Part shown: piece after piece, positions 10,874 to 26,486 of the stretch
Layout of the letters: each line of letters opens with the position of its first letter
Position numbering within the stretch: the first letter of the stretch is position 1
Origin: an uncultured Eubacteriales bacterium
GTDB lineage: Bacteria > Bacillota > Clostridia > TANB77 > RGIG9151
Assembly (NCBI GenBank): GCA_964640345.1
Contig: CAZXFU010000003.1
Coordinates: forward strand, 1-35,165
Direction of reading: 5' to 3'
Length of the DNA stretch: 35,165 bases
Made by a program: the position numbers and the translations under genes
The notes under the pieces: model-generated
What the model saw: the letters and a program-made list of their open reading frames with translations, nothing else
The model's database searches: none
What the model was told of the DNA's origin: nothing

Positions 10874-10912
10874 AAAAATGAAGTGAAAAAGTGAATAATG
10901 GGAGGGAACGCA

Positions 10913-11851
10913 ATGGATGAATTAAAAATCTTCGGTTGTGACGCTAGTAAGGAATTTGCAAAGGAAGTTTGTGACTCTTTAGGAATGAAACTCGGTCAAA
11001 GTGAGTCTTTTAAGTTTGATAACGACAATAGGTTTGTTAAAATCCTTGAAACGGTAAGAGGAGACGATGTTTTTGTTATTCAGACTTCTAAGCCGCCTGT
11101 AGATGAAAACTTTATGGAACTTCTTATTACGATTGATGCTTTAAAAAGAGCATCTGCGAAACGAATTACTGCGATTTTGCCGTATTATCCTTATGCTCGT
11201 TCGGATAAAAAGGATCAACCGAGAATTGCAATTACCTCTAAATTGGTGGCTGATTTATTGGCTGCTGCAGGTGCAAACAGAGTTTTAACGTCTGATTTGC
11301 ATGCTATACAGATTTTGGGATTTTTCAATATCCCGGCGGACCAGTTGGTTTTTGCGGATTTATTGTCAAATTATTTTAAAGAGAAAAACTTTGAAGACTT
11401 AGTTGTTGTAGCAACAGATGCCGGTAGTTCTAAAAAAGCCTATAAATATGCAAAAAGGCTTAACTGCCCAATTGCTATGTTAGATAAAAGGAGACTTGGC
11501 AATTCTCAAGAGACATTAATTGAAAACATCGTTGGAGATGTTGCGGGAAAAAGATGCGTTATTTTTGATGATGAAGTGGATAGAGGAAGTTCGATTATGA
11601 ATGCGGTTCATGTTTTAGAGGATTACGGAGTAAAAGAAATATATGCAGCATGTACTCATGGAGTGCTTTCGGGGCCGGCTGTCGAGAGAATAAAAAATTC
11701 ATCAATAAAAGAATTTGTAATTACAAATACAATTCCTTTACCACCTGAAAAGCAATTAGATAAAATAACTGTTTTGACAGTTGCACCGATTTTTGCCGAA
11801 GCAATAAAGAGGATTCATGAAGGTCGCTCTATGGGAGAAATGTTTTATTAA
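10913..11851 (+). CDS. prs: Ribose-phosphate pyrophosphokinase (PRPP synthetase)
   Basis: LKIFGC..., ITAILPYYPYARSDKK, the DLHA motif and the PRPP-binding loop VIFDDEVDRGSS. The ATG at 10913 follows GGGAGGG. Confidence 0.95.
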   Translation: MDELKIFGCDASKEFAKEVCDSLGMKLGQSESFKFDNDNRFVKILETVRGDDVFVIQTSKPPVDENFMELLITIDALKRASAKRITAILPYYPYARSDKKDQPRIAITSKLVADLLAAAGANRVLTSDLHAIQILGFFNIPADQLVFADLLSNYFKEKNFEDLVVVATDAGSSKKAYKYAKRLNCPIAMLDKRRLGNSQETLIENIVGDVAGKRCVIFDDEVDRGSSIMNAVHVLEDYGVKEIYAACTHGVLSGPAVERIKNSSIKEFVITNTIPLPPEKQLDKITVLTVAPIFAEAIKRIHEGRSMGEMFY

Positions 11852-11869
11852 TTCTTTTTGGGGGAAGAT

Positions 11870-12643
11870 ATGCAAAGTGTTGGAATTTATGTTAATTTAG
11901 AAAAAGATGCGGATTTTTGCGTTACAAAAAGTATTATTTCCATTGCCGAAAAATTTGATGCAAGGTGCGAAGTAGCTGAAGTTGGTAAAAAATATGATTT
12001 TATTATATCTTTGGGAGGAGACGGAACTTTTTTAAGTGCATCTAGGAAGTTTTTAGATGAGAAAATTATTGGAGTTAATTTAGGTAATTTAGGTTTTCTT
12101 TCAGAGATTGATAAAAATAGTATAGAGCTTGAGTTGGAAAAGATTCTAAATGGGAAGTTCTTTACAGAAGAAAGATTTCTTATTGAGACAACAATTCATG
12201 AAAAAAAATTGAGAGCGTTGAATGATATTGTGGTAAGCAGAGGGAATATTGCAAGACTGCTTAATTTAGAAGTGTATTTTGATGGAAGATTCGTTGATAA
12301 TTATGTGGCGGATGGTCTTATAATTTCTACGCCAACAGGTTCTACTGCCTATTCTATGTCTGCGGGTGGACCTATTGTAGAGCCGAGGCTTGATGTACTT
12401 ATTGTGACTCCGATTTGTGCCCATTCGTTACATCAACGCCCGCTTATTGTTAATTCGGGTACTGAAATAAAATTATGCGTAAAAAATGGTAAATTTATTG
12501 TGACAGCAGATGGTCAGGAGTCTGTTAATAGTGAAAATATAAAAGAAATTATTATTAAGATGTCAGATAAAAAAATAGATATAGTGAAAACGGGTAAGAA
12601 TTGTTTCTTCGATACCGTAAGAAAGAAGTTTCATATTGTGTAG
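11870..12643 (+). CDS. nadK: NAD(+) kinase
   Basis: GGDGTFL motif, NLGNLGFL, and DGLIISTPTGSTAYSMSAGGPIV. The ATG at 11870 follows GGGGGAAG. Confidence 0.93.
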   Translation: MQSVGIYVNLEKDADFCVTKSIISIAEKFDARCEVAEVGKKYDFIISLGGDGTFLSASRKFLDEKIIGVNLGNLGFLSEIDKNSIELELEKILNGKFFTEERFLIETTIHEKKLRALNDIVVSRGNIARLLNLEVYFDGRFVDNYVADGLIISTPTGSTAYSMSAGGPIVEPRLDVLIVTPICAHSLHQRPLIVNSGTEIKLCVKNGKFIVTADGQESVNSENIKEIIIKMSDKKIDIVKTGKNCFFDTVRKKFHIV

Positions 12644-12663: not shown

Positions 12664-14328
12664 ATGTTAGCTCATATTCATATTAAAAATATAGGAATAA
12701 TAGAGGACTTAGAAATTGATTTTGATAAAGGTCTTAATATTTTAACCGGGGAAACAGGTGCGGGGAAAACCCTTATTCTTGGTGCAATTCAAATGATTTG
12801 TGGCGGGAAAGTAAGTCGCGATTTAATAAGAAATGGTGCAGATAAAGCCTTTACGGAGGCTTTGTTTTATATTGAAGATTTAAGGCTTAAAAAGGCATTG
12901 AGTGACATGGGGTATGAAGGAGACGAAATTGTAATTTCAAGAGAACTTTCAAATTCCGGAAAATCCGTTGCTAAAGTAAACGGACGACTTGTTAGTGTTA
13001 ACGAGCTAAAGGAACTTGGGAAAGTTTTGGTAGATTTACATGGACAGCACGATAATCAATCACTTTTAGATCCTAAAAATCATATTGAGGTTATAGATAA
13101 CTTTGCGGGAACAGAGATTAGCGGATTAAAAAGTAAGTATACAGAATTATACAATAAACGAAAAGATATTTTAGCGGATATTGAAAGGCTTGGAGGTAAT
13201 CCTGAACAGAGAATAAGAACTATGGAGTTTTTGAAATTCCAAATTGATGAGATAAGCAGTGCAAATCTTAAAGAAAGTGAAGATGAAGAACTTAGCGAAA
13301 AGCGAAAAGTTATGGCTAATGCTGAAAAAATTATTCATAATTTATCATATTCATACGAGGTTTTTTCAGATGAGAATGGGGTTTTAAATACTTTAGAGAA
13401 GGTTCGAAGTAGGCTGGAAGAAATTTCAGGGATAGATAGTAAATATGAAAAGTTTTTAGAATCTGTGAATGAGGCATATTATCAAATTGAGGACTTAAAG
13501 GATGAGATTTCTTCTGAGACTGAAAGGTTTTTTGTTGATGATGAGGAGCTTAATAAAATAGATGAGCGACTTGATTTGATATTTAAACTTAAGAAAAAAT
13601 ATGGAAGGACAATTCCGGATATATTACAATCATATGATGATATGAATAAGGAGTATTTGGAGCTTTGCAATTCTGAAGAGATGGTTAATAAGTTAAATCA
13701 TGACCTAGTTGAGGTTGAAAAATCATTAAAAGGTGTTGCGTTAGAGATTTCGACAGTTAGGAGAAAAGTCTCTTATGAACTTCAAGTTAAGCTTGTAGAT
13801 ATTCTAAAGGATATGGAAATGCCTAAGGCAAAGTTTTCTATAAAAGTTGAGGAAACTAAAGATTTTTTAAAAAACGGTATGGATGACGTTGAAATATTGT
13901 TTTCGTCTAACCCTGGAGAGGATGTTAAGCCACTTAGCAAGGTCGCATCAGGCGGAGAAATATCAAGAATAATGCTTGCGTTAAAGAATGTTCTTGCAAA
14001 TGCCGATATAATTCCAGTGATGATTTTTGATGAAATAGATACGGGAATTAGTGGAAAGGCAGGCTTTGCTGTTGGCGAGAAGATGGTTGAAATAGCCAAA
14101 GACAAGCAGGTTATATGTGTTACTCACTTACCGTCAATTGCAGCTTGTGGCAGCCAAAATTATTATATTTGCAAAAATAGTTTAGGAGATAAGACTGTTA
14201 CTTCTGTAAAGAAACTAAATGAAGAGGAAACGATACATGAGATAGCAAGAATTATTAGTGGTGGTAATATTTCCGAAGCTGCATTACTTCATGCTAAAGA
14301 GATTAGAGGAGTCAAAAGCACGGTTTAG
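12664..14328 (+). CDS. recN: DNA repair protein RecN
   Basis: N-terminal Walker A GETGAGKT, a long coiled-coil middle, the C-terminal ABC signature SGGEISRIMLALK and Walker B IMIFDEIDTGISG. Confidence 0.95.
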   Translation: MLAHIHIKNIGIIEDLEIDFDKGLNILTGETGAGKTLILGAIQMICGGKVSRDLIRNGADKAFTEALFYIEDLRLKKALSDMGYEGDEIVISRELSNSGKSVAKVNGRLVSVNELKELGKVLVDLHGQHDNQSLLDPKNHIEVIDNFAGTEISGLKSKYTELYNKRKDILADIERLGGNPEQRIRTMEFLKFQIDEISSANLKESEDEELSEKRKVMANAEKIIHNLSYSYEVFSDENGVLNTLEKVRSRLEEISGIDSKYEKFLESVNEAYYQIEDLKDEISSETERFFVDDEELNKIDERLDLIFKLKKKYGRTIPDILQSYDDMNKEYLELCNSEEMVNKLNHDLVEVEKSLKGVALEISTVRRKVSYELQVKLVDILKDMEMPKAKFSIKVEETKDFLKNGMDDVEILFSSNPGEDVKPLSKVASGGEISRIMLALKNVLANADIIPVMIFDEIDTGISGKAGFAVGEKMVEIAKDKQVICVTHLPSIAACGSQNYYICKNSLGDKTVTSVKKLNEEETIHEIARIISGGNISEAALLHAKEIRGVKSTV

Positions 14329-14346: not shown

Positions 14347-14922
14347 ATGAATTTTTTAGAGGAAATAGAATTTAATATTATGCAGCCGATAGGCATTAAT
14401 GTTGTGGCTTTTCTGATAAAGATGACCAAAGCAAACCAATGGGAAAATTTACCGCTTTGCACTTTGGAAAAACTTGAATATACAGAGACTGCTGTAAACG
14501 GTAGGATTCAACGAACTTTTTCGATTCCTTACGGAGACGATACGAGCACAGGCAACATACTTATTGCTTCTTTGGGGAAGAACAGATGTGTTATTGGGCA
14601 TGGTCATATAATAAATAAAGAGTTTGTTTCGGAAGAAGAAACTATCCAACTTGAGTATATGAATTATAATGAGTCTGACGTTGAATCAAGAAATTATACT
14701 TTTTCGTATAACCCTAAAAGACAGATTGTTTTGTTAGATATTGAGACCGGATGCCAGATGCTACCGACTATTTCCAAACCGGATATGTTTGGGAATTTAA
14801 AGGGTGTTTATAAGTTGGTTCCATATAGAAGATATATTGCATTAGAGATGAATGTTATGGTTACTTTACCGAGAGATGCGGTTGTCGAAAATATTGAAGA
14901 TTTAGCGGATGTAATATTATAG
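14347..14922 (+). CDS. Hypothetical protein (191 aa), no recognisable motif
   Basis: Long ORF with RBS GAGGAGGG 6 nt upstream. It starts 16 nt after the recN stop and abuts the next ORF. Confidence 0.6.
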   Translation: MNFLEEIEFNIMQPIGINVVAFLIKMTKANQWENLPLCTLEKLEYTETAVNGRIQRTFSIPYGDDTSTGNILIASLGKNRCVIGHGHIINKEFVSEEETIQLEYMNYNESDVESRNYTFSYNPKRQIVLLDIETGCQMLPTISKPDMFGNLKGVYKLVPYRRYIALEMNVMVTLPRDAVVENIEDLADVIL

Positions 14923-14937
14923 ATGAGGAGGTTTTTT

Positions 14938-15573
14938 ATGGAGTGTAATGTAAGTATAAGATTTTGCGGACAGGTTATTGTACCGAATGAAAATGGGGAA
15001 TTAGAGTTTGAGGCAGGTTCAGGAACAAAGACAAAAATTCCTGCGGAAGAAGTGCATAAGAGACTATCGCAAGCTCAATCTTTTGATGAAGCGATTGAAT
15101 ATTTAAAGAACAGTGGGGCGTATGTTGGAAAAGAAGATTCGAGAGTTATGGTTGTTATGACTCCAAACGGTAGCCAGATTTTTTCTAATGATGCTCCGAG
15201 TCAAAAGATTGTTGTAGATAAAGACATTCCTGAGAATGTTATAAGTGAAATATTGAGTGTTGACGGATTAGACAGTATTGGGACCGTAGAGAGAATTTTA
15301 ATTTCCAATAATATAATTGAAGATCCGGAAAAAGAGGCTGAAAGAATAAAAACTATTAATGGTGGAGAGTTTAGTTTTGAAAAAGAGGCAGATAACGTTG
15401 ATTCAAGGAGTATGTTAGATGGAGGAGAAATTGCTAGTACAAGACTCAATAGAGACATGTTGGAAGATCCTAAAAATGGCATAATTAGTGAGGAAGAAAA
15501 ACGCAAATTTGATGAAGAGAGATTAAGAAAGAAGAGAGAAGAACATACTAAGGATGACGGTTTAGATAGATAA
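14938..15573 (+). CDS. Hypothetical acidic protein (211 aa) with a Lys/Glu-rich C-terminal tail
   Basis: ORF with GAGGAGG 6 nt before the ATG at 14938; the track start at 14923 would place that RBS inside the ORF. The C-terminus is EEEKRKFDEERLRKKREEH. No family recognised. Confidence 0.6.
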   Translation: MECNVSIRFCGQVIVPNENGELEFEAGSGTKTKIPAEEVHKRLSQAQSFDEAIEYLKNSGAYVGKEDSRVMVVMTPNGSQIFSNDAPSQKIVVDKDIPENVISEILSVDGLDSIGTVERILISNNIIEDPEKEAERIKTINGGEFSFEKEADNVDSRSMLDGGEIASTRLNRDMLEDPKNGIISEEEKRKFDEERLRKKREEHTKDDGLDR

Positions 15574-15596
15574 AATCTAAAGAGGAGAGATAACGA

Positions 15597-17459
15597 ATGA
15601 TAAAGGGTATTTTGAAAAATAGAAAGAAAAGATTTTGCTTTTACGGAATTGTTACTTTTGCGAGTTCGTTGCTTTTTTCATGGTTAATTACTATATTGGT
15701 TACACAATTTAAATATATGCTTGATAGTTCTATTAATTTTAATGTTTTTAGTCTTGATGCACTGCGTCGGGATGAATTTTTTATGTTGTTTCCGAAGAAT
15801 TTTTTGTTTTTTTTGGCGGTGGGATTTATTATTGCAATTTGCTATGAAGTAAAAAATTATGTTATAAAAGGTGAATATGAAGGAATAGAGCATGGTTCGA
15901 GTGGATGGGCTGACGGCGAACAATATGAGATATTAAACAGAAAAGATGGTATCATTTTGGCCCGGGACAATTATCTGACGACAGATAATAAGTTTATAAA
16001 TAAAAATGTTTTAATTATTGGTGGTGCCGGTTCTAGGAAATCAAGAGGTTATATAATGCCCAATATGATGCAGATGCTGGGCTCGTATGTTGTAACTGAC
16101 CCAAAGGGTGAGAATTTTGATACTGCGGCCGGTTTTTTGCAGAAAAACGGTTATGAGGTAAGATGTATAAATCTTGTTAATCCGAGTTGTAGCGACTCTT
16201 ATAATCCTTTATGGCATATTGGCAGTACGCTTGATGTTGATATTATTAGTGACGCTTTAATAAAAGGGACAAGTAAGGGTTCCACTAATGAAGACCCTTT
16301 CTGGCCACAGGCAGAAAGAGCGTTGCTTAACTCATGTATTTATTATTTGCTTAGTGAATGTCCTAAGGAAGAGCAGTCGTTTGCGAGTTGCCTTGCGATG
16401 GTAAGAGCGGGAGAAAATTTTGACTGGATGGACGATGTTTTTATGCGTCTTCCTTTTGAGCATATGGCAAGAAAGAGTTACGAGACATTTAGGCTTGCTG
16501 TTGATAAGACAAGAGCGGGAGTTTTAGTAGGACTTGCAACTCGTCTTAATGTTTTTGATACGCCTGAAATTTCTTCGATTACAGGTACAAGTTCTATAGA
16601 TATCGATGCGATGGGTTCTAAAAAAATGGCAACATTTGTAATTACCCCAGATAGCCATAGTGCATTTAACTTTATTTCTACGATTTTCTTTGGACAGGTT
16701 TTGCAAAGACTTTATTACAAGGCAGATGAAAACTCTGCAATTCGTGCTGATGGTAAATGTACGTTAGATGTTCCGGTATTTTTCCTTATGGATGAATTTG
16801 CTAATGTTGGTCAAATCCCGGATTTTAACCAAAAACTTAGCACGAGTAGAAGCAGAAATATCAATATTAGTATTGTCTTACAGAGTATAGACCAATTGCA
16901 GGATTTGTATAAGGATATTTATGAAAATATTATGGCCAACTGCGATACACATTTATTTTTAGGAAGCCAGGCTACTAAAACTTGTGAATATATTTCTAAA
17001 AGTTTGGGAGAAACTACTATTAATAAGAAACAGGTTTCTTTAAGCGGGAAAATGAACGGAATTGTTTTAGCATCTTCACCTGATTCGCAAAGTGTATCTG
17101 ACCAATCGATGGGACGTTCGCTTGTGACCATTGATGAGCTTAAGAGATTACCGCTTGATACAAGTATTGTTATGGTTAAAGGTTTAAGACCTATTAAGGC
17201 AAAAAAATATGATATTAGTATGCACCCATTGGCAAAGGAAATTGATAAGTTTAAGATTAGCCATAATAATCCGACTCTAAATCACAGAGGAGAGTACAGG
17301 ATTGTTTATCCTTATGGGTTAAAAACGGGAGCAGTTAACAATAGTGTACGGTCTAATGCTAACGAAGAAGAGCCTGAAATCGAGAATAATCTTGATGATG
17401 TGGATATCCAAAAGCAACTTGAAACTAAGTTTGATGAATTGTTTGGGAGTTTAACATAA
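15597..17459 (+). CDS. Type IV secretion coupling protein (VirD4/TraG family)
   Basis: Two N-terminal TM helices and a P-loop region NVLIIGGAGSRKSRGYIMPNMMQ...YVVTDPKGE. Walker B with the TraG C-terminal signature is FFLMDEFANVGQIPDFNQKLSTSRSRNINISIVLQSIDQL. Architecture is typical of Bacillota conjugative T4CPs. Confidence 0.88.
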   Translation: MIKGILKNRKKRFCFYGIVTFASSLLFSWLITILVTQFKYMLDSSINFNVFSLDALRRDEFFMLFPKNFLFFLAVGFIIAICYEVKNYVIKGEYEGIEHGSSGWADGEQYEILNRKDGIILARDNYLTTDNKFINKNVLIIGGAGSRKSRGYIMPNMMQMLGSYVVTDPKGENFDTAAGFLQKNGYEVRCINLVNPSCSDSYNPLWHIGSTLDVDIISDALIKGTSKGSTNEDPFWPQAERALLNSCIYYLLSECPKEEQSFASCLAMVRAGENFDWMDDVFMRLPFEHMARKSYETFRLAVDKTRAGVLVGLATRLNVFDTPEISSITGTSSIDIDAMGSKKMATFVITPDSHSAFNFISTIFFGQVLQRLYYKADENSAIRADGKCTLDVPVFFLMDEFANVGQIPDFNQKLSTSRSRNINISIVLQSIDQLQDLYKDIYENIMANCDTHLFLGSQATKTCEYISKSLGETTINKKQVSLSGKMNGIVLASSPDSQSVSDQSMGRSLVTIDELKRLPLDTSIVMVKGLRPIKAKKYDISMHPLAKEIDKFKISHNNPTLNHRGEYRIVYPYGLKTGAVNNSVRSNANEEEPEIENNLDDVDIQKQLETKFDELFGSLT

Positions 17460-17464
17460 TTTTT

Positions 17465-17507
17465 TCTATGTATTATTACTTGTTTTTTGAAGAGAATAAT
17501 ACATAGA
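17465..17507 (+). terminator. AT-rich hairpin after the coupling-protein gene (weak terminator or processing site)
   Basis: 13-bp perfect stem TCTATGTATTATT / AATAATACATAGA with a 17-nt loop. No downstream T-run. Confidence 0.3.
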
Positions 17508-17517
17508 GGTGAGTGCA

Positions 17518-17685
17518 ATGAATAATTTTACACGTGGCTTGCTTATTGGCAGTTTTTTAGGAGCGGCTCTTGGACTTACCGGAGCAGTAAATTCTGATTG
17601 GCTTCAAAAGAAGGTTTGGAAACCTAGTAGGAAGGCTATAAAAAAAGCAAGTAGAGTTATGAGTGATGTGGCAGGTATGATGTAG
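17518..17685 (+). CDS. Small membrane-anchored protein (55 aa, YtxH-like Gly-rich N-terminus)
   Basis: Not in the ORF track because it is under 60 aa. ATG at 17518 follows AGAGGTGAG. Translation is MNNFTRGLLIGSFLGAALGLTGAV...KKASRVMSDVAGMM. A strong terminator follows. Confidence 0.45.
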   Translation: MNNFTRGLLIGSFLGAALGLTGAVNSDWLQKKVWKPSRKAIKKASRVMSDVAGMM

Positions 17686-17692
17686 AGTGGGA

Positions 17693-17757
17693 AAATAAAA
17701 TATAGCAAAGTGATTGATAACTAAAAAACGTAGAAGTCACTTTGCTATATTTTATTT
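17693..17757 (+). terminator. Intrinsic terminator, 21-bp perfect inverted repeat
   Basis: AAATAAAATATAGCAAAGTGA (17693-17713) pairs with TCACTTTGCTATATTTTATTT (17737-17757), with a 23-nt loop and a T-rich 3' side. Confidence 0.75.
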
Positions 17758-19755: not shown

Positions 19756-20079
19756 TTGAAAAAGAAGTTTGCTGTTTTAGTACCGGTGTTTTGTGTTTTG
19801 ATTACGACGGTTTCTTTTGCAGCAGCAAGTTATCCTACTATTATGAATAATTTGAACAGTGCACTTACCAAAATACAGTCTTGGTTGGTAACTATTGCTA
19901 CTCCGGCAGCCGCAATTGGGGTTATAAGCGGTGTCCTTATTAAAAAGTTTAGCTTTGGAGATACCGAAAGAATGTTGGTAGGAAGAAGACTTATAAGGTC
20001 TTGCTTTGTTTCGTACGGTATGGTTATGGGAATCGATTTACTATTAAAGGCAATTAAAACATTTGTCACAAAATCGTAA
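19756..20079 (+). CDS. VirB2/TrbC-like pilin-type membrane protein (107 aa)
   Basis: Sec signal peptide MKKKFAVLVPVFCVLITTVSFAAA|S, a hydrophilic stretch, TM1 (LVTIATPAAAIGVISGVLI), a charged loop (KKFSFGDTERMLVGRR) and TM2 (SCFVSYGMVMGIDLLL). This is the canonical T4SS pilin layout. The call is by topology, not by sequence identity. Confidence 0.5.
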   Translation: MKKKFAVLVPVFCVLITTVSFAAASYPTIMNNLNSALTKIQSWLVTIATPAAAIGVISGVLIKKFSFGDTERMLVGRRLIRSCFVSYGMVMGIDLLLKAIKTFVTKS

Positions 20080-20094
20080 AGTGCGGGTGAAAAC

Positions 20095-20141
20095 AAGACA
20101 TAAGGTTTAACAGAATAATGCGTAACCTTATGTCTTATTTT
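20095..20141 (+). terminator. Hairpin after the pilin-like gene (partial terminator or attenuator)
   Basis: 13-bp perfect stem AAGACATAAGGTT / AACCTTATGTCTT with a 16-nt loop, followed by ATTTT. Confidence 0.55.
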
Positions 20142-20169
20142 CCAGTGCAAAAAGATTGGAGGTATATAG

Positions 20170-21009
20170 TTGAATAAGATAGTTGCTATAGTAGAGGCGT
20201 TAGACTGCTTAAAGGGACTTTGGAATTCCACTTCGGAACTTTTAGCGGAGGTCATGCCTAATAATTTTTACGAACTTATGGACAAGTTTGCTTTTTTGAA
20301 TGCGAATTTTTTATATATTGAAAGCTCAGGGAAATTTTTAGATAAAACTCAAAATATAGCAAATGCGATTATGAATTTATCTAACTTTGTAATATGGGGG
20401 ATTTTGTTATTTTTCGGTTTTAAGAGTTTGTTTTCTTACTTTATTTCCCAAAAAGTTGATGTCCCTTGGAAGATGTTTATCAGGATTATTATATTTGGAG
20501 TTTTAGCAAATTCGGCATTTTTTATTTGCTATTCCGGAGTGTTTTTTGCAGAAAATTGCACGAATTATATTAGAGGCTATGTGGGTGAAAGTAATACATC
20601 ATTTGCTTTTTTGGAAGAATGTGTAGACAAAAATGACTTTGATACTGAAAAAGATGAAGAATCCCAACTCAATATTTATACTGTTGATGCACTTATATCC
20701 TTATTTATTTTTTTCTCTTCTTTTTTACTATCTGTTTTTCTTTGTGGAAGATACATTTTACTAAGAGTTTTGATACTTTTATCGCCCGTGTCTTTTTTAG
20801 TCTGTGGGATAAAGGATGGAGAGAGAATATTTATTAGATGGTGCAAAGGCTTTTGTTCACTACTTTTTATGCAAGCGTTTTTTGCTGTGTCGTTAGGTAT
20901 AGTAAATTTTACGAATATCAAAGATGATACAATGTTTGGAATTTTGGTTTGTGCTCTATTGCTGCTTTTTAATAAATTTGTTTTTAGATTTTTAAAATTA
21001 TCATTATAA
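20170..21009 (+). CDS. Polytopic membrane protein, VirB6/TrbL-like
   Basis: 279 aa with about 6 predicted TM helices and a roughly 60-aa soluble N-terminus. The central segment GRYILLRVLILLSPVSFL resembles the TrbL/VirB6 core helix. It directly follows the pilin-like gene, as in Bacillota T4SS loci. TTG start after GGAGG. Confidence 0.45.
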   Translation: MNKIVAIVEALDCLKGLWNSTSELLAEVMPNNFYELMDKFAFLNANFLYIESSGKFLDKTQNIANAIMNLSNFVIWGILLFFGFKSLFSYFISQKVDVPWKMFIRIIIFGVLANSAFFICYSGVFFAENCTNYIRGYVGESNTSFAFLEECVDKNDFDTEKDEESQLNIYTVDALISLFIFFSSFLLSVFLCGRYILLRVLILLSPVSFLVCGIKDGERIFIRWCKGFCSLLFMQAFFAVSLGIVNFTNIKDDTMFGILVCALLLLFNKFVFRFLKLSL

Positions 21010-21069
21010 AGTATTAATAAACCTTTTTGCAAAACCGATAAATAAGGAGAGAAAGGTAGGTAGATTATT

Positions 21070-21873
21070 GTGAAGATTTCAAGGATTAGGCATGTGGTAT
21101 GTACGTCAATATTTTTCTTAATTGTTATTGCTATTATAACTGCGTTGTTTACGGCTGAGATAGACGCATTAAGAAAAAACACTGAGGAAATGGTTTATAG
21201 AGTTGTTGCGACTCAGGATATAGAACCTGGTAAGTCCATAACTTCTGATAATGTTCAGCTTGTTCAGATACAAAATGTTTTAGATGTTGATGGAGCAGTT
21301 TACAGAATGAATAAAGATGATGATAATGTTTCTTCTGTAGAAGCATATCAGAATGGTACTAAAAGAGAGAAAAATGATGAGCTTTGGGCAGTTGGGAAAG
21401 TGGCTAAGGACAAGATTTATAAAGGTGAAATCCTACTTGCCGAAAAGCTTGTTTTAAATGAAAATGTAGTTGGAGATGAAACGAGGCTTTACGCTATCCC
21501 ATTTGATTCATCTACTACAGGCGGATATAATATAAGTTTAGGCGAAAAAGTTGATATTTGTGTATTATACACAGAAAACGCTAAGACGATTGCGGAATAT
21601 CAGAATTTACCGGACAATAAGGCTATTGATATTGTGCTTGCCGGAAAGCAGATTGCAGATATAAGAGACGAATCAGGAAATAGCAGAAAATCTCAAGAAG
21701 GAGCTGCTGTAGTGCCGGGTTATGTTTGCTTTAATTTGTCATATGAAGAAATAAACAAAATCGAAATTGCAAAACGCCAAGGTTCGTTGTTTATTGGTAA
21801 TGCAGAAAATTATTATAAAGAGGGAAGCCAGGCGGAGACATTTATGACAGATGTTGCTATGCCTAACTTCTAA
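21070..21873 (+). CDS. cpaB: Flp pilus assembly protein CpaB/RcpC-like (SAF domain)
   Basis: N-terminal TM anchor, a SAF-like segment (YRVVATQDIEPGKSITSDNVQLVQI) and a C-terminal RcpC-like segment (RLYAIPFDSSTTGGYNISLGEKVDICVLY). GTG start. Confidence 0.7.
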   Translation: MKISRIRHVVCTSIFFLIVIAIITALFTAEIDALRKNTEEMVYRVVATQDIEPGKSITSDNVQLVQIQNVLDVDGAVYRMNKDDDNVSSVEAYQNGTKREKNDELWAVGKVAKDKIYKGEILLAEKLVLNENVVGDETRLYAIPFDSSTTGGYNISLGEKVDICVLYTENAKTIAEYQNLPDNKAIDIVLAGKQIADIRDESGNSRKSQEGAAVVPGYVCFNLSYEEINKIEIAKRQGSLFIGNAENYYKEGSQAETFMTDVAMPNF

Positions 21874-21893
21874 TTTGGAAAGGGAGAGTAAGA

Positions 21894-22748
21894 ATGGGTG
21901 AAAATAGAAACTCAAAAGTAATTTCAGTAGGAAGTATAAAACATGGCCAGGGTATTACATGTTTTACGTTTAATCTTGCATACAAGCTCTCTACTTTGCT
22001 CGATAAAAAGATATTAATTATTGATACAAATTTTATGTTTAAAGAAATCGCATATATTGCCGAACAGACTAATCCAAATGGAATAGATGATTTGATTTCT
22101 ATGGTAAAAACACAGGAATTATCTCAAGAAATTTTTATGTTATATACAGAAGAAGTAAATAAGCATTTACGTGTTATAAATTCGACGCAGATTGATACAT
22201 TGGACTATATAAGGAAAAACGATAAGTATATTATAAAAATTATAGAAGAGGCAAAGAAATATTTTGATATTATTATTATCGATGCGGGAGCGGGAGTAAA
22301 CAAGAATTCATTAATAAAGCAGATTTATGAGGTTAGTGATGTATTTGTAAATATGCTTACTCAAAATGCCTATATAATTGATTGGTACGTTAATCATAAC
22401 GAATTTAAAGATGAGAAAGTTATTAATGTTATAAATATGTATGAAGAAGACATTTATCCGGATTATGGCGATATTACTAAAGAATTTAAGTTATCTGACC
22501 TTAGTTTGATAAGATATTCTAAATTGTTTAAGAACTTTTATAACCAAAAAATATTAGATCCTTTTTACAAAACAGAAGACCTGTTTAATAACGATTTTTC
22601 GCAGCTTATTATTAAAGTGGCTGAAAAATTAAATATAAAGGAACTAAAAAAACTTGATATTGTTAATACAAATATGTTAATTGATAGCAAATATAATGAA
22701 AAAGCCAAAAAAGGTTTTTTTGCAAGATTGTTTTCTTCAAAAAAGTAA
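21894..22748 (+). CDS. TadZ/CpaE-like ParA/MinD-fold protein with a degenerate P-loop
   Basis: KVISVGSIKHGQGITCFTFNLAYKLS...KILIIDTNF aligns with the ParA/MinD pattern (kvI.v.s.KGGvGKTt.a.nLA...kVllvD.d), but both lysines are lost. Its position between cpaB and cpaF is typical of TadZ. Confidence 0.65.
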   Translation: MGENRNSKVISVGSIKHGQGITCFTFNLAYKLSTLLDKKILIIDTNFMFKEIAYIAEQTNPNGIDDLISMVKTQELSQEIFMLYTEEVNKHLRVINSTQIDTLDYIRKNDKYIIKIIEEAKKYFDIIIIDAGAGVNKNSLIKQIYEVSDVFVNMLTQNAYIIDWYVNHNEFKDEKVINVINMYEEDIYPDYGDITKEFKLSDLSLIRYSKLFKNFYNQKILDPFYKTEDLFNNDFSQLIIKVAEKLNIKELKKLDIVNTNMLIDSKYNEKAKKGFFARLFSSKK

Positions 22749-22760
22749 GGAAGTGAGAAG

Positions 22761-24311
22761 ATGACACAGGTACTTCTAAATGATGTCATAAACGACATAA
22801 AGAATATAATGGAGAACTATAAAGATGATAAAGAATTAAAAATGCTCCACCAAAAGAAAATTGACCAGGCGGCTGCCGGGAGTCCGGAGGCGAAAGGGTA
22901 TGTAAAAGAAGAAATATTAAAAATTTGTTTAAAAGAATTTAAGTTAAAAATAACAGAGGATAATATCGACGACTTGATTTCACAATATCATATAAATTAT
23001 TTTGAGAATATTTATGGTGATGATGAAAACGATCCTTTTTATAAACTATTTGAGCATATGATGTTAAATCATGATGATGATTATGAAACCAAGCTAGACA
23101 GACTTGTCCAAATTATTTACCAGGAGTTATACGGACTCGGCGTAATTGATGAATTATGCGAAGGGCATATCGACGAAACAGGAGTAAATGGTAAAGATTA
23201 TATTTGGGTTCAGGTTGGCGGATTAAAAAGACAGGTTAAGAAGCTTCGCTTCGAAAATAATGCGGTTTTACAGAAAAAAGTTTCTACTGCAATTAGTTTT
23301 GATAGTAAAAATGATATAACAGCGAGTGAGCCGATTGTCTATTGCCAAAGAATGAACGGAAGCCGTGTTACGGCGGTTATTCCTCCTGTTGCCAAGTATC
23401 CGATACTTAATATTCGTCACTTCCATTTGGCAAATGTTACTAAATATGATTTAGTAGACAAAGCAACTTTAACTGCACTTGCAGTAAAATTTATTGAGCT
23501 TGTATTTGCAGGGCGTCCAAACTTCCTAATTATAGGTCAACAGGGTAGTGGTAAATCTACGCTTTTAAGAGTTTTATTAAATGAAGTATCTGATGCAATC
23601 GGTATTGGAACGATTGAAAATATGTTTGAGTTGAACTTAGATGATTATTATCCTAGTAAAAACGTTATTGCTTTGCAGTCTACCGAAAAATTCCCGGCAG
23701 ACAAGTTGTTTGAGTTAATGTTAAGACAAAATAGAGATATTATTCTACTTGGAGAAATAAGGTCTTCTAACGAAGCTGTAGAAACGATAAACGCAATGTT
23801 ACGTCAATGCCGTGGCTCTGCTGCTACTTTTCATAGTTCTTCGCCTACTCGTGCGATACATGACTTGAGAAACCTTTGTATGAGAAGTAGTCAGTATAAA
23901 GACTTCTTAACAGCTCAATTTGACGTTGCGGATGCTATTGACTTGATTTTGGAGGGACGGCTTGATTATAAAACCGGTAAAAGATATATAAATCGTATTT
24001 CTGTTGTTGAAGCAGATGATACAGACTATAAATTTGCAGTTAATGATATTTTTAGGTATGACCATGATAAGAAGGAATTGTTGCCGGTTCAATGTGTCTC
24101 AGACGAATTCCTTGAAAAGCTGCTTGATTATGGTATGCCAATAGAGAATATAAAGAAAATAAAAGATTTATTTAAAGAAAATGTAAAAACAGATGAATTA
24201 AATTCTGAAGAAAAAAATGAAGTTGAAAAGCCGGAAACTAAAGGAAAGAAAAACAGTAAAAATAAGGCAGAAGATGTAGAAGTAAAAACTAAAAAACAGG
24301 CAAAAAAATGA
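22761..24311 (+). CDS. CpaF/TadA-type secretion ATPase (VirB11 superfamily) with a Lys-rich C-terminal tail
   Basis: Walker A GQQGSGKST (23535-23558), Walker B and Asp box DIILLGEIRSSNEA, and a His-box-like ATFHSSSP. The length of 516 aa is typical of CpaF. The last 45 or so residues are K/E-rich. Confidence 0.85.
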   Translation: MTQVLLNDVINDIKNIMENYKDDKELKMLHQKKIDQAAAGSPEAKGYVKEEILKICLKEFKLKITEDNIDDLISQYHINYFENIYGDDENDPFYKLFEHMMLNHDDDYETKLDRLVQIIYQELYGLGVIDELCEGHIDETGVNGKDYIWVQVGGLKRQVKKLRFENNAVLQKKVSTAISFDSKNDITASEPIVYCQRMNGSRVTAVIPPVAKYPILNIRHFHLANVTKYDLVDKATLTALAVKFIELVFAGRPNFLIIGQQGSGKSTLLRVLLNEVSDAIGIGTIENMFELNLDDYYPSKNVIALQSTEKFPADKLFELMLRQNRDIILLGEIRSSNEAVETINAMLRQCRGSAATFHSSSPTRAIHDLRNLCMRSSQYKDFLTAQFDVADAIDLILEGRLDYKTGKRYINRISVVEADDTDYKFAVNDIFRYDHDKKELLPVQCVSDEFLEKLLDYGMPIENIKKIKDLFKENVKTDELNSEEKNEVEKPETKGKKNSKNKAEDVEVKTKKQAKK

Positions 24312-24340
24312 TTTTTGTTAGGAAATGGAGGATGAAATAG

Positions 24341-25297
24341 ATGTCAGAGATTTCCCTTTTGATAACTGATTGGTTTGTAGAATTCGGATATGGATTGTTA
24401 ATCTTTATTGCCGTTGCTGTGGTTATGCTGATAGGAATTTTAATATATATAACGTATATAGAAAAGAAAAACAGTGCATGGCTTAACCAAAGAAAAAGCA
24501 GTGTAAAAGCTGTATATTCGCTAAAAAATATTCCTATTTTATATGGAATTCAAACAAGGATTGCTAATAAGTTTGCTATTACAAATACAGGTTCAAGGCA
24601 AGAAAATGAGAGATATGCATTATATGTTATGGGATTTATCTTAATTTGTGCAATTGGAATTATTGTGTTGCTGTATCCATTTGTAAATACATATCCATAT
24701 GCTATTATTTTAATAGTAGCAATAGGTTTGGCTATTCCTTGGATGGTGTTTAGTATATTTTATGAAGCTCAACTTGCCAAAATGATAAAGCAGTTGCCAC
24801 AAGCTATTGATGAGTTTGCAAGCAGTTATAGGAAGTCAAATAAGGTTTTTAATGCACTAAGAGATTCTTATCAGTTTATGCCAAGAGTTGTTGGCAAAGA
24901 ATTTGAAAGGCTTTATAAGTCATATAATATTGACTTTGAAGACGGAATTGAGTATTTTAGATCGAGAATAAAAAACGATTGGGCAGGTATTTTTGCGAGT
25001 CTTCTTTTGATAAACTACACAAAGGGCGGAACGATTATTGCTCAATTAGATGATTTAAATACAGAAATTGAAAACGATATTATCGCAAAAGATAGAGTAA
25101 GAAGTAAAATGTTAGGATTTAAATTAGTTGCACTTTCCACGATCCTTTTAGTAGTATTGGCTATTTTTTCAAATATGTTGATGTCTGAATCTGCTAAAGA
25201 ATATTATATGGGTTATTCCGGTCAAAATGAGATTATTATTACGTTAACAATCGCATTCATAACGTTTTTATGTATGATGATTGTTGAAAGATTATAA
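24341..25297 (+). CDS. TadB-like platform protein (T2SS-F domain)
   Basis: TM helices flank a helical cytoplasmic domain (QLPQAIDEFASSYRKSNKVFNALRDSY...GIEYFRSRI...LDDLNTEI) that fits the T2SSF/TadB pattern. It directly follows the ATPase gene. Confidence 0.7.
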   Translation: MSEISLLITDWFVEFGYGLLIFIAVAVVMLIGILIYITYIEKKNSAWLNQRKSSVKAVYSLKNIPILYGIQTRIANKFAITNTGSRQENERYALYVMGFILICAIGIIVLLYPFVNTYPYAIILIVAIGLAIPWMVFSIFYEAQLAKMIKQLPQAIDEFASSYRKSNKVFNALRDSYQFMPRVVGKEFERLYKSYNIDFEDGIEYFRSRIKNDWAGIFASLLLINYTKGGTIIAQLDDLNTEIENDIIAKDRVRSKMLGFKLVALSTILLVVLAIFSNMLMSESAKEYYMGYSGQNEIIITLTIAFITFLCMMIVERL

Positions 25298-25313
25298 AGG
25301 GGTGATAAAGTAC

Positions 25314-26486
25314 ATGGGGGAAATAATTTTAGGTATTGTAATAGGTCTGATAGTGTTATTAGTGTTATTTTTGATAATTTTGTTTGTACATCAGCCCCGG
25401 GCGATAAAGGTAAAAAATGATACATTTTCTTTAGAAGAGCTTACTTACTCACCTGTATTTAAAAAAGTAATTAATGGTCTTATGCCACCGGCAGAAGAGA
25501 GGGAATACAGGCAAAACGAGAGACTTATAAGTGACTCCGGAGTTAATATCTCAATGAGAGTGTTTTACTTATTTAAGGTTGTAACGCCGATTGTTTTGCT
25601 AGTAATATTTTTATCTATATTTTTTATTAACAGATCAATAAGAATAGATGCCATTATAACAGACCAAATAGTTGAAACTGTTGATGTACTTGGAAGCGAT
25701 TCAACAAAGCAGGTTGATACTTCATCTAATCAAGAAAAACGTGAAATGGAAAAGGCAAGAAAAGATACGTATCAAATAGTTGAAAATTTGATTGATACAA
25801 GAATTCTAAAAACAGAAGATGCTTTAACCGCAAAGCAGGTTATTCAGGAAATTATGTTAGAAAACCATCTCACGACAGATGATAATGTAGCAAACGACGT
25901 ACCAGATATGTATGACAAACTAAAGAAAGTTTATGCTGCAAAGGAGATAAGTCCGGTATCAATATTACTTATATTGCTATTCTCATTGTGTGGATATTAT
26001 ATCCCAAATGCATATTTAAGAATATCGAGATTAATAAGATATCAATCTTTTGATAATGAAGTTATAGCACTTGAGATGCTAACTATAATGGTGGGGTCTA
26101 TTGAGAACGTTACGGTAAAAGAGGTCTTAAGAATTTTATCATTAAATAGTAAGGCATTTAAACCAAACTTTGAAAAAGCCTTGCTTGAATATCCGATAGA
26201 CTTTGAGCAAGCACTTATAAATTTAGGCGATAGCAGTAAAAATAAAGATTTTCAGGCTCTTGTTTCTACACTAAGGCAATGTGCTACGTCGGATAAATAT
26301 TCAGCGTTGCAAACGCTTCAAAGAAGAAGGCTTAGTAGGAAAGAATATCGGAAACTAATGGAAGAGAAAAAAATCGAAACAAAGATGTATATTGCATTTG
26401 TGATGTTACTTCCTGTATTGTTCTTCCTTGCAAAGTTGCTGTTATCTCCATGGCAAGATTTGATGAATACAAGCGGTTTGCTGTAA
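25314..26486 (+). CDS. TadC-like platform protein (T2SS-F domain), enlarged
   Basis: N-terminal TM helix, a second TM helix, a roughly 110-aa soluble insert, then a T2SSF-like domain (EVIALEMLTIMVGSIENVTVKEVLRIL...FEQALINLGD...ALQTLQ) and a C-terminal TM helix. The ATG at 25314 follows AAAGGGG; the track TTG at 25281 is an alternative start. Confidence 0.6.
   Translation: MGEIILGIVIGLIVLLVLFLIILFVHQPRAIKVKNDTFSLEELTYSPVFKKVINGLMPPAEEREYRQNERLISDSGVNISMRVFYLFKVVTPIVLLVIFLSIFFINRSIRIDAIITDQIVETVDVLGSDSTKQVDTSSNQEKREMEKARKDTYQIVENLIDTRILKTEDALTAKQVIQEIMLENHLTTDDNVANDVPDMYDKLKKVYAAKEISPVSILLILLFSLCGYYIPNAYLRISRLIRYQSFDNEVIALEMLTIMVGSIENVTVKEVLRILSLNSKAFKPNFEKALLEYPIDFEQALINLGDSSKNKDFQALVSTLRQCATSDKYSALQTLQRRRLSRKEYRKLMEEKKIETKMYIAFVMLLPVLFFLAKLLLSPWQDLMNTSGLL

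Follow-up and report, generated by a model that had tools for sequence, protein, structure and literature searches.

The DNA analysed here, a stretch of 35,165 nucleotides from contig CAZXFU010000003.1 of an uncultured Eubacteriales bacterium (assembly GCA_964640345.1; hereafter the window), carries on its plus strand a gene for a VirD4-type type IV coupling protein (T4CP) and, upstream of it, an open reading frame (ORF) of 192 codons, ORF192. The two genes form a single-copy, vertically inherited core pair of the order of Clostridia to which the bacterium belongs, and genes of type IV secretion systems (T4SSs) are found on other contigs of the same genome. Sequence comparisons suggest that the T4CP is a core chromosomal gene of the order, which probably serves a T4SS encoded elsewhere and not the pilus operon adjacent to it in the window. 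We give a probability of about 0.55 to the reading that ORF192 and the T4CP constitute a domesticated module feeding an order-wide chromosomal T4SS.

ORF192 and the T4CP are a core pair of the order

The window's own assembly (G000; 172 contigs, 1.47 Mb, estimated completeness 93.7%) was compared by six-frame search with 40 relatives. The 41 genomes, of 0.9-1.8 Mb, fall into five families (f1-f5) and 18 genera; the genus of the window, g1, and its sister genus, g2, belong to f1. An orthologue of the T4CP was found in 40 of the 41 genomes, usually as a single copy, and HMMER alignments gave identities of 83-86% within the genus, 75% to the sister genus and 41-51% to the other families. In a maximum-likelihood (ML) tree the order's orthologues make up one clade, apart from the T4CPs borne by integrative and conjugative elements (ICEs) in the same genomes, and each of the families f2-f5 is monophyletic with 100% support. 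The extra, ICE-borne copies in the relatives are at most 41% identical, and many of them are located a few kb from a PF03432 relaxase gene on the same contig. The closest plasmid-borne T4CPs share at most 38% identity.

The chromosomal context was read from 20-kb regions around 20 T4CP orthologues. In all 20 loci an ORF192 homologue lies directly upstream of the T4CP gene on the same strand, and the pair is flanked by ordinary chromosomal or housekeeping genes that vary by family. In f2 and f5 it is preceded by murF, ddl and a gene for a DnaJ-like protein and followed by Mre11/SbcD-like, Rad50/SbcC-like and prfA genes; in f3 it is preceded by ftsH and tilS and followed by spoIID and a gene for a SpoIIQ-like M23 peptidase. 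The neighbours seen in the window, namely recN, ispG and a Tad-like operon, are found beside the pair in genus g1 only, and this neighbourhood is a genus-specific rearrangement. A profile of ORF192, built from alignment A1, matched 290 of 301 genomes sampled from the order, in 41 of 43 genera, with one locus per genome, a few of them split into two matches. Nine of the 11 genomes without ORF192 also have no T4CP orthologue. When a class-wide sample was searched, the profile matched all 16 members of the order and none of the 385 other genomes. The initial annotation of the window, a model's reading of the letters, had placed two partners of unknown function between recN and the T4CP; ORF192 is indeed a conserved partner, whereas the second, ORF216, is a fast-evolving sequence that can be recognised only within f1.

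Sequence identity within genus g1 is 90-93% for prs, 80-86% for the T4CP (74% to G003), 82% for ispG, 70-73% for recN, 61-70% for ORF192, 61-64% for ppnK, 35-46% for ORF216 and 69-83% for a small 58-aa ORF downstream of the T4CP (47% to G003). The T4CP is better conserved than most of the neighbouring genes, including recN. Its reading frame is intact in 33 of the 40 genomes, and the sequence data support a functional gene under selection.

In the other seven genomes (G009, G013, G017, G029, G031, G036 and G037) the T4CP is split into two abutting or overlapping ORFs, a transmembrane (TM) piece of ~165 aa and a piece of ~500 aa with the nucleotide-binding domain (NBD). In-frame TAG codons were observed within the aligned region in three of these seven genomes. 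The split T4CP could be explained either by a recurrent split gene or by a recoding event.

Architecture of the T4CP and a clade-fixed substitution in its P-loop

ORF192 and the T4CP gene occupy the following positions in the window.

14344/14347-14922, plus strand: ORF192 (192/191 aa), with its likely start at ATG 14347, after a GAGGAGG ribosome-binding site
15597-17459, plus strand: T4CP gene (620 aa), VirD4-type, CD1115 family by profile matches
15633-15866, plus strand: hydrophobic (TM) segments of the T4CP, residues 13-37 and ~60-90, from a Kyte-Doolittle scan
16020-16043, plus strand: deviant Walker A motif GGAGSRKS, with the Arg147 codon AGG at 16035-16037, as read from the sequence
16086-16112, plus strand: YVVTDPKGE motif of the T4CP
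16779-16820, plus strand: T4CP motif FFLMDEFANVGQIP, within the Walker B/TraG-D_C region 16779-16898
16845-16898, plus strand: T4CP motif SRSRNINISIVLQSIDQL; the region 16779-16898 reads FFLMDEF...SRSRNINISIVLQSIDQL and is conserved

By its sequence, the 620-aa ORF is a full-length VirD4-type coupling protein of the CD1115 family. It matches NF045973 ('VirD4-like conjugal transfer protein, CD1115 family') at 417.9 bits (cut-off 250), PF02534 at 221.4 bits (cut-off 20.1), PF12696 at 115.4 and PF10412 at 76.4. The protein begins with a two-helix membrane anchor, continues with the NBD and an all-alpha domain, and ends in an acidic tail. The profile match, the N-terminal TM anchor, the Walker B motif (FFLMDEF) and other NBD residues are those of a type IV coupling protein, whereas the Walker A motif, GGAGSRKS, departs from the canonical GxxGxGK[ST].

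In this motif Arg147 takes the place of the Gly of GxxxxGK[ST]. GGAGSRKS was found in every f1 orthologue, in both genera, and in each of the 30 database homologues of at least 57% identity whose motif region is preserved, and two further homologues have Lys at position 147. The motif is GGSG[SAT]GK[ST] in all other families and in the ICE copies. Among the T4CPs examined, the 14 of a clade of f1 and metagenome sequences all have Arg, and the 28 others all have Gly. The Arg-bearing T4CPs are monophyletic in the ML tree (100/100 support), and the change can therefore be traced to one substitution that was later fixed. Fifty-three columns of the alignment are invariant, allowing at most one exception among the 28 non-Arg T4CPs; the Arg clade retains 50 of them, and G147R is the sole change fixed across all 14 of its members. 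Since the Arg is clade-wide and 50 of the 53 invariant sites are kept, it is neither a private substitution nor an indication of decay. We reject the reading, named in the initial annotation as the mark of an inactive relic, that the P-loop carries a private or inactivating mutation. In f1 the Gly would have changed to Arg once and then been held by purifying selection. A side chain at the P-loop Gly of nucleoside triphosphatases is expected to perturb phosphate or nucleotide binding, and an altered or regulated use of nucleotides by the Arg147 proteins is possible.

T4SS genes are encoded elsewhere in the genome

The initial annotation had described the T4CP as an orphan. This holds for the window, where no relaxase, VirB4 or integrase was recognised in the ORF list (of which not every ORF was scanned), but not for the genome, since the other contigs of G000 carry three VirB4-like ATPases and a second T4CP. 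VirB4 genes were searched for with protein queries, as the PF12846 (AAA_10) profile also matched control genomes and was not specific enough.

One of the three ATPases, here called VirB4b, is of ~650 aa, is 63-80% identical across families and was found in all 11 genomes of the order that were sampled. Outside the order, only four of 290 genomes have a match, at 30-38% identity. The VirB4b cluster contains three to five genes for VirB2-like (pilin-like) proteins together with VirB3-like, TrsD-like (VirB4 N-domain), VirB6-like and M23-peptidase genes, and its VirB6-like proteins, of 780-1330 aa, are Mbov_0396-like. It was seen at the loci L043 (G016:C7), L044 (G013:C1), L045 (G008:C16), L046 and L047 (G025:C9), and in G000 the 3' part of the cluster is located at C31:2-1150, where it is cut by the contig end. 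A cluster of VirB4-, TrsD-, VirB3-, VirB6- and VirB2-like genes is thus present in every sampled genome of the lineage, as would be expected of an exapted chromosomal T4SS of the monoderm type.

A further T4SS, of the Mycoplasma-ICE type, is found in genus g1. Its VirB4, of the Mbov_0397 family (586 bits, cut-off 590), is encoded with tandem VirB6-like genes at C29:8544-16440 (minus strand), and at C97:426-4057 (minus strand) lie the second T4CP (673 aa, with the canonical Walker A GATGSGKT) and an Mbov_0395-type pilin gene. The third VirB4-like ATPase, VirB4a, is treated below.

A whole-genome search for relaxases, which the initial annotation had proposed, found no match to PF03432, PF02486 or PF01076 in G000, and 23 of the 41 genomes have none of these three families (MOBF, MOBH and MOBC were not searched). 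Since most genomes have no relaxase of the families searched, exaptation would have given the system a use other than classical conjugation.

These results are consistent with the following scenario. The T4CP would be a descendant of the conjugative coupling proteins of monoderms (CD1115 family) that has left mobile elements, and with ORF192 it would have been core to this order of uncultured rumen and gut Clostridia (genomes of ~1.1-2 Mb) since the order's ancestor. Most plausibly the T4CP receives substrates for a translocation machine, and it would act as a membrane-anchored hexameric receptor and translocase, with ORF192 as its putative cytoplasmic adaptor. The module would feed an order-wide chromosomal T4SS at a separate locus, and the foremost candidate for this T4SS is the VirB4b cluster; the suggestion that the T4CP couples to VirB4b is drawn from their shared order-wide distribution. 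The T4SS of Patescibacteria would be the model for such a system.

Several observations weigh against this scenario. The T4CP module adjoins the VirB4b cluster in no genome examined, and seven genomes without ORF192 and T4CP keep VirB4b, either because of assembly gaps or because the T4SS is independent of the T4CP. VirB4a, order-wide and fused with Tad genes in three families, is an equally available partner. The search for relaxases covered three families, in an assembly of 172 contigs that is 93.7% complete. Among public sequencing runs, none was found that would show expression of the locus. Finally, the replacement of Gly by Arg is expected to disturb nucleotide binding, and classical ATP-driven coupling is therefore uncertain in the Arg-bearing family f1.

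The ORF192 domain and its association with repair genes

The AlphaFold2 model of ORF192 (pLDDT 83, pTM 0.77) is all-beta and two-lobed, and the protein has neither a signal peptide nor a TM segment. No Pfam or NCBIfam match was found for it, and a Pfam scan of 17 homologues one by one was also empty. The fold search that the initial annotation had recommended for both ORFs was carried out with Foldseek and gave no match in the PDB for the models of ORF192 and ORF216 (nothing below E = 0.01, TM-scores ~0.3 or less); the ORF192 profile likewise matched no PDB sequence. Among 1.84 billion representative proteins the profile had 334 hits. Stand-alone proteins with the domain are of ~170 aa, and the domain also occurs within proteins of 500-1050 aa that begin with a TIR or Ser/Thr-kinase domain and end in Sel1 repeats (P0172, P0176, P0182, P0185, P0192 and P0206; locus L065:3049-5151). 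An architecture headed by TIR or kinase and tailed by Sel1 is typical of signalling and defence (conflict) systems, which suggests that the ORF192 domain is an adaptor or sensor module. One of these TIR/kinase-Sel1 proteins adjoins another TIR protein.

ORF192 homologues, or the short ORF that intervenes before the T4CP, often end in an acidic run and then hydrophobic residues (DDDEMIV, EDEPIV, GEDDMII and EDLADVIL), and the f1 homologues of ORF216 end in G[LM]DR. These C-termini might serve for docking.

The gene for P0306, a divergent stand-alone homologue, immediately precedes a T4CP gene, behind which come Metallophos and AAA_27 (SbcD/SbcC-like) genes. An ORF192-T4CP-Mre11/SbcD-like-Rad50/SbcC-like gene order is common to f2, f5 and this divergent lineage (L014, L017, L018, L020, L023, L026, L027, L030-L032 and L062:8001-13710). 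It is conceivable, if rather doubtful, that the order has a relaxase-independent T4SS in which the T4CP, as the receptor bound to the ORF192 domain, is tied to SbcCD-like and RecN repair genes and moves DNA or proteins, the Arg/Lys of the P-loop in f1 going with an altered or regulated use of nucleotides.

The same gene order bears on the alternative that no T4SS channel is involved and that the pair is a DNA translocase or sensor anchored in the membrane and tied to double-strand-break repair or to a conflict system. The position of the pair directly behind recN in g1 and the presence of the ORF192 domain in TIR/kinase-Sel1 proteins would fit such a role, and the exaptation of a remote T4CP is a possibility that in the words of PMC12102498 'cannot be ruled out'. 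However, the neighbours of the pair in f3 and f4 (ftsH, tilS, spoIID and the M23 peptidase) are unrelated to repair, no homologue of the SbcC/D-like pair is detectable in G000, and core gene order can persist without a functional link. In addition, all T4CPs known to us work with a channel. We consider a channel-free role unlikely.

VirB4a, the neighbouring Tad-like operon and mobile elements

The split VirB4a system is another possible partner of the T4CP. In G000 it is located at C57:1736-4462 (minus strand) and consists of a VirB3-like gene (119 aa), a TrsD-like gene (196 aa) and an ATPase gene (609 aa), the VirB4 gene being split. VirB4a was found in nearly all of the 41 genomes, and in two f5 loci, L037 (G016:C4:86000-102000) and L038 (G012:C28:276000-292000), its ATPase gene directly precedes TadZ-, CpaF- and TadB-like genes. 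Hit coordinates place VirB4a and a CpaF-like gene within ~2 kb of each other in most f3 and f4 genomes, and in G000 the Tad part is on C8 and VirB4a on C57. VirB4a and the Tad genes form a hybrid T4SS/Tad operon in these f5 loci, and the coordinates suggest a like arrangement in most genomes of f3 and f4. VirB4a is order-wide, and the hybrid operon of f3-f5, in which TadZ-, TadA/CpaF- and TadB-like genes are fused to it, has no T4CP of its own and might be the machine that the T4CP serves. Nevertheless, VirB4a is adjacent to the T4CP in no genome; f2 has VirB4a and the T4CP, yet no CpaF-like match of ~430 aa; G008 keeps the T4CP, but no VirB4a was detected there; and the score of VirB4a against NF045971 lies below the cut-off (287 vs 325 bits). 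A partnership with VirB4a is in our estimation another unlikely alternative, a little behind a channel-free role.

The initial annotation had proposed that one translocation system is divided into two halves, the T4CP module and the adjacent operon at 19756-26486, with the T4CP recruiting its substrates. The operon comprises VirB2-like, VirB6-like, CpaB-, TadZ-, CpaF/TadA-, TadB- and TadC-like genes, with a T2SSE (TadA-like) ATPase gene at 22761-24311. Its place in genus g1, 2.3 kb from the module and on the same strand, its T4SS-like pilin and VirB6-like genes, its lack of a coupling ATPase of its own and the confinement of both operon and P-loop Arg to the f1 lineage speak for the proposal. 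The phylogenetic profile speaks against it. Orthologues of the operon ATPase (>80% identity) were found in only seven of the 41 genomes (G000, G001, G004-G007 and G008), all of f1, whereas the T4CP is present in 40 and the T4CP/ORF192 pair is order-wide. The ATPase is absent from all other families and from G002 and G003, members of the same genus that keep the T4CP, Arg included. In G008, of genus g2, the T4CP and the operon ATPase are on different contigs, and the T4CP lies mid-contig next to neither recN nor the operon. T4CP and operon are thus not co-distributed, which the initial annotation itself had named as evidence against its proposal. Since the T4CP is order-wide and the operon ATPase is found in seven of 41 genomes, an obligate two-halves system is excluded, and obligate pairing with the neighbouring Tad-like operon is rejected. 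The coincidence of operon and Arg in one clade carries no statistical weight because it represents a single evolutionary event. A facultative link between T4CP and operon within f1 is conceivable but has no specific support, and we regard the two-halves proposal as improbable.

That the module is a decayed ICE remnant, its P-loop Arg marking an inactive relic, is hardly credible: the family model is a conjugative one (NF045973), neither relaxase nor VirB4 lies nearby and the Walker A is non-canonical, yet the T4CP is an order-wide single-copy orthologue with a tree congruent with the families rather than patchy in its spread and incongruent with its hosts, its frame is mostly intact, its conservation exceeds that of recN, its Arg is fixed in a deep clade that keeps 50 of 53 invariant sites, and its surroundings (no relaxase, VirB4 or integrase recognised in the window; housekeeping flanks in the 20 related loci; att repeats not searched) show neither an integrase nor a compositional shift (35.4% GC in the ORF192-T4CP module vs 33.4% in the window). 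The ICE remnant, which the initial annotation had itself listed as a possible refutation, is accordingly rejected.

Gene string around the module in the window

The remaining features of the locus are as follows.

10898-11851, plus strand: prs, part of the gene string
11858-12643, plus strand: ppnK, part of the gene string
12664-14328, plus strand: recN (TIGR00634, 512.8 bits), ending 15 nt before ORF192
14923-15573, plus strand: ORF216 (216 aa), an open reading frame and fast-evolving linker gene
17509-17685, plus strand: small ORF, 58 aa from GTG or 55 aa from ATG
17693-17757, plus strand: hairpin with a 23-bp perfect stem (-27.5 kcal/mol, z = -6.6)

The plus-strand gene string around the module reads prs-ppnK-recN-ORF192-ORF216-T4CP-small ORF and is closed by the hairpin; none of 200 shuffled sequences folds as well. 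The hairpin has only a weak T-run, and its stem is far longer than that of a typical intrinsic terminator. The layout of the genes after recN, the T4CP motifs, the position of the P-loop and the hairpin are all as initially annotated. Of the two ORF sizes given there, 191 aa agrees with the start at ATG 14347, whereas 211 aa was counted from an internal ATG of the 216-aa ORF.

ORF216 is acidic, with a folded N-domain of ~130 aa and a disordered, charged tail; its AlphaFold2 model has a pLDDT of 69, with residues 145-169 disordered. It is recognisable within f1 only, and by sequence search within the genus only. The distance between ORF192 and the T4CP gene ranges from 12 to 674 bp across loci, and in the other families the gap holds unrelated charged ORFs of 50-123 aa, or nothing. 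Neither ORF216 nor the 58-aa ORF has a Pfam or NCBIfam match. As a conserved partner of the T4CP, ORF216 is rejected, since its position is kept and its sequence is not (see its low identity within the genus); by its sequence, it is a fast-evolving positional filler. The product of the small ORF has one weakly hydrophobic, Gly-rich segment, and the ORF is kept 3' of the T4CP within f1, with 47-83% identity in the g1 and g2 loci.

Comparison with known systems

The T4CP shares two TM helices, the NBD, the all-alpha domain and TraG-D_C with the conjugative CD1115-family T4CPs of Firmicute ICEs and plasmids (PcfC/TraG/TrwB-type). It differs from them in its low identity to plasmid-borne (at most 38%) and ICE copies (at most 41%), in being chromosomal, single-copy, vertically inherited and order-wide with no adjacent relaxase or VirB4, in having a dedicated ORF192 in place of the usual accessory genes, and in the change of the Walker A Gly to Arg in f1. 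The adjacent operon resembles Tad/Flp (type IVc) pili in its CpaB-, TadZ-, CpaF/TadA- and TadB/C-like proteins, but such pili use no T4CP, and the distribution of the T4CP is independent of the operon.

The relaxase-less chromosomal T4SS of Patescibacteria is the closest analogue of the order's putative system. Patescibacteria have a chromosomal, MPF-FATA-like T4SS with TrsD and no relaxase, and their T4CP is encoded far from virB4 (PMC12102498). Like the T4SS of Patescibacteria/Saccharimonadia, the putative system described here is of the monoderm type, is fixed in the chromosome of a lineage with small genomes, combines VirB2-like arrays, VirB3, VirB6 and a TrsD-like gene beside VirB4, has a T4CP gene distant from virB4 and, in most genomes, is not accompanied by a relaxase. 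The present order, in contrast, consists of Clostridia that are flagellated and have sporulation genes; it has two order-wide VirB4 paralogues, one of them Tad-fused; its T4CP is accompanied by a dedicated partner and deviates in its P-loop in one family; and the system is known here from genes alone. The rvh T4SS of Rickettsiales offers a second parallel, as its genes are scattered in chromosomal islands and vertically inherited in a reduced genome (cited in PMC12102498). Scattered chromosomal T4SS genes, vertical inheritance and a reduced genome are shared with the order studied here, whereas the rvh system is a diderm MPF-T system with VirB7-10, secretes effectors into eukaryotic hosts and has canonical P-loops. 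Literature searches for orphan T4CPs in Firmicutes, or for VirB4 combined with Tad, returned no description of the present system. The T4CP and ORF192 would be an exapted, vertically inherited T4SS coupling module of an order of Clostridia, with an order-specific partner of apparently novel fold and a clade-fixed deviant P-loop.

Coupling proteins are normally read as markers of mobile elements. In the large order of uncultured Clostridia studied here, a coupling protein belongs to the vertically inherited core genes and has a dedicated partner, and the other genes of a T4SS are fixed at another place in the chromosome. Pipelines that search for ICEs will mis-call such T4CP genes. The deep Arg/Lys clade under purifying selection, set against its Gly-bearing sister clades, provides a natural experiment on the Walker A Gly. 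The ORF192-like domain is a new domain shared with TIR/kinase-Sel1 proteins and may be a general adaptor or sensor module. If ORF192 and the T4CP do feed a chromosomal T4SS, the pattern of exapted chromosomal T4SSs in reduced genomes would extend from Patescibacteria and Rickettsiales to the Firmicutes of the gut and rumen.

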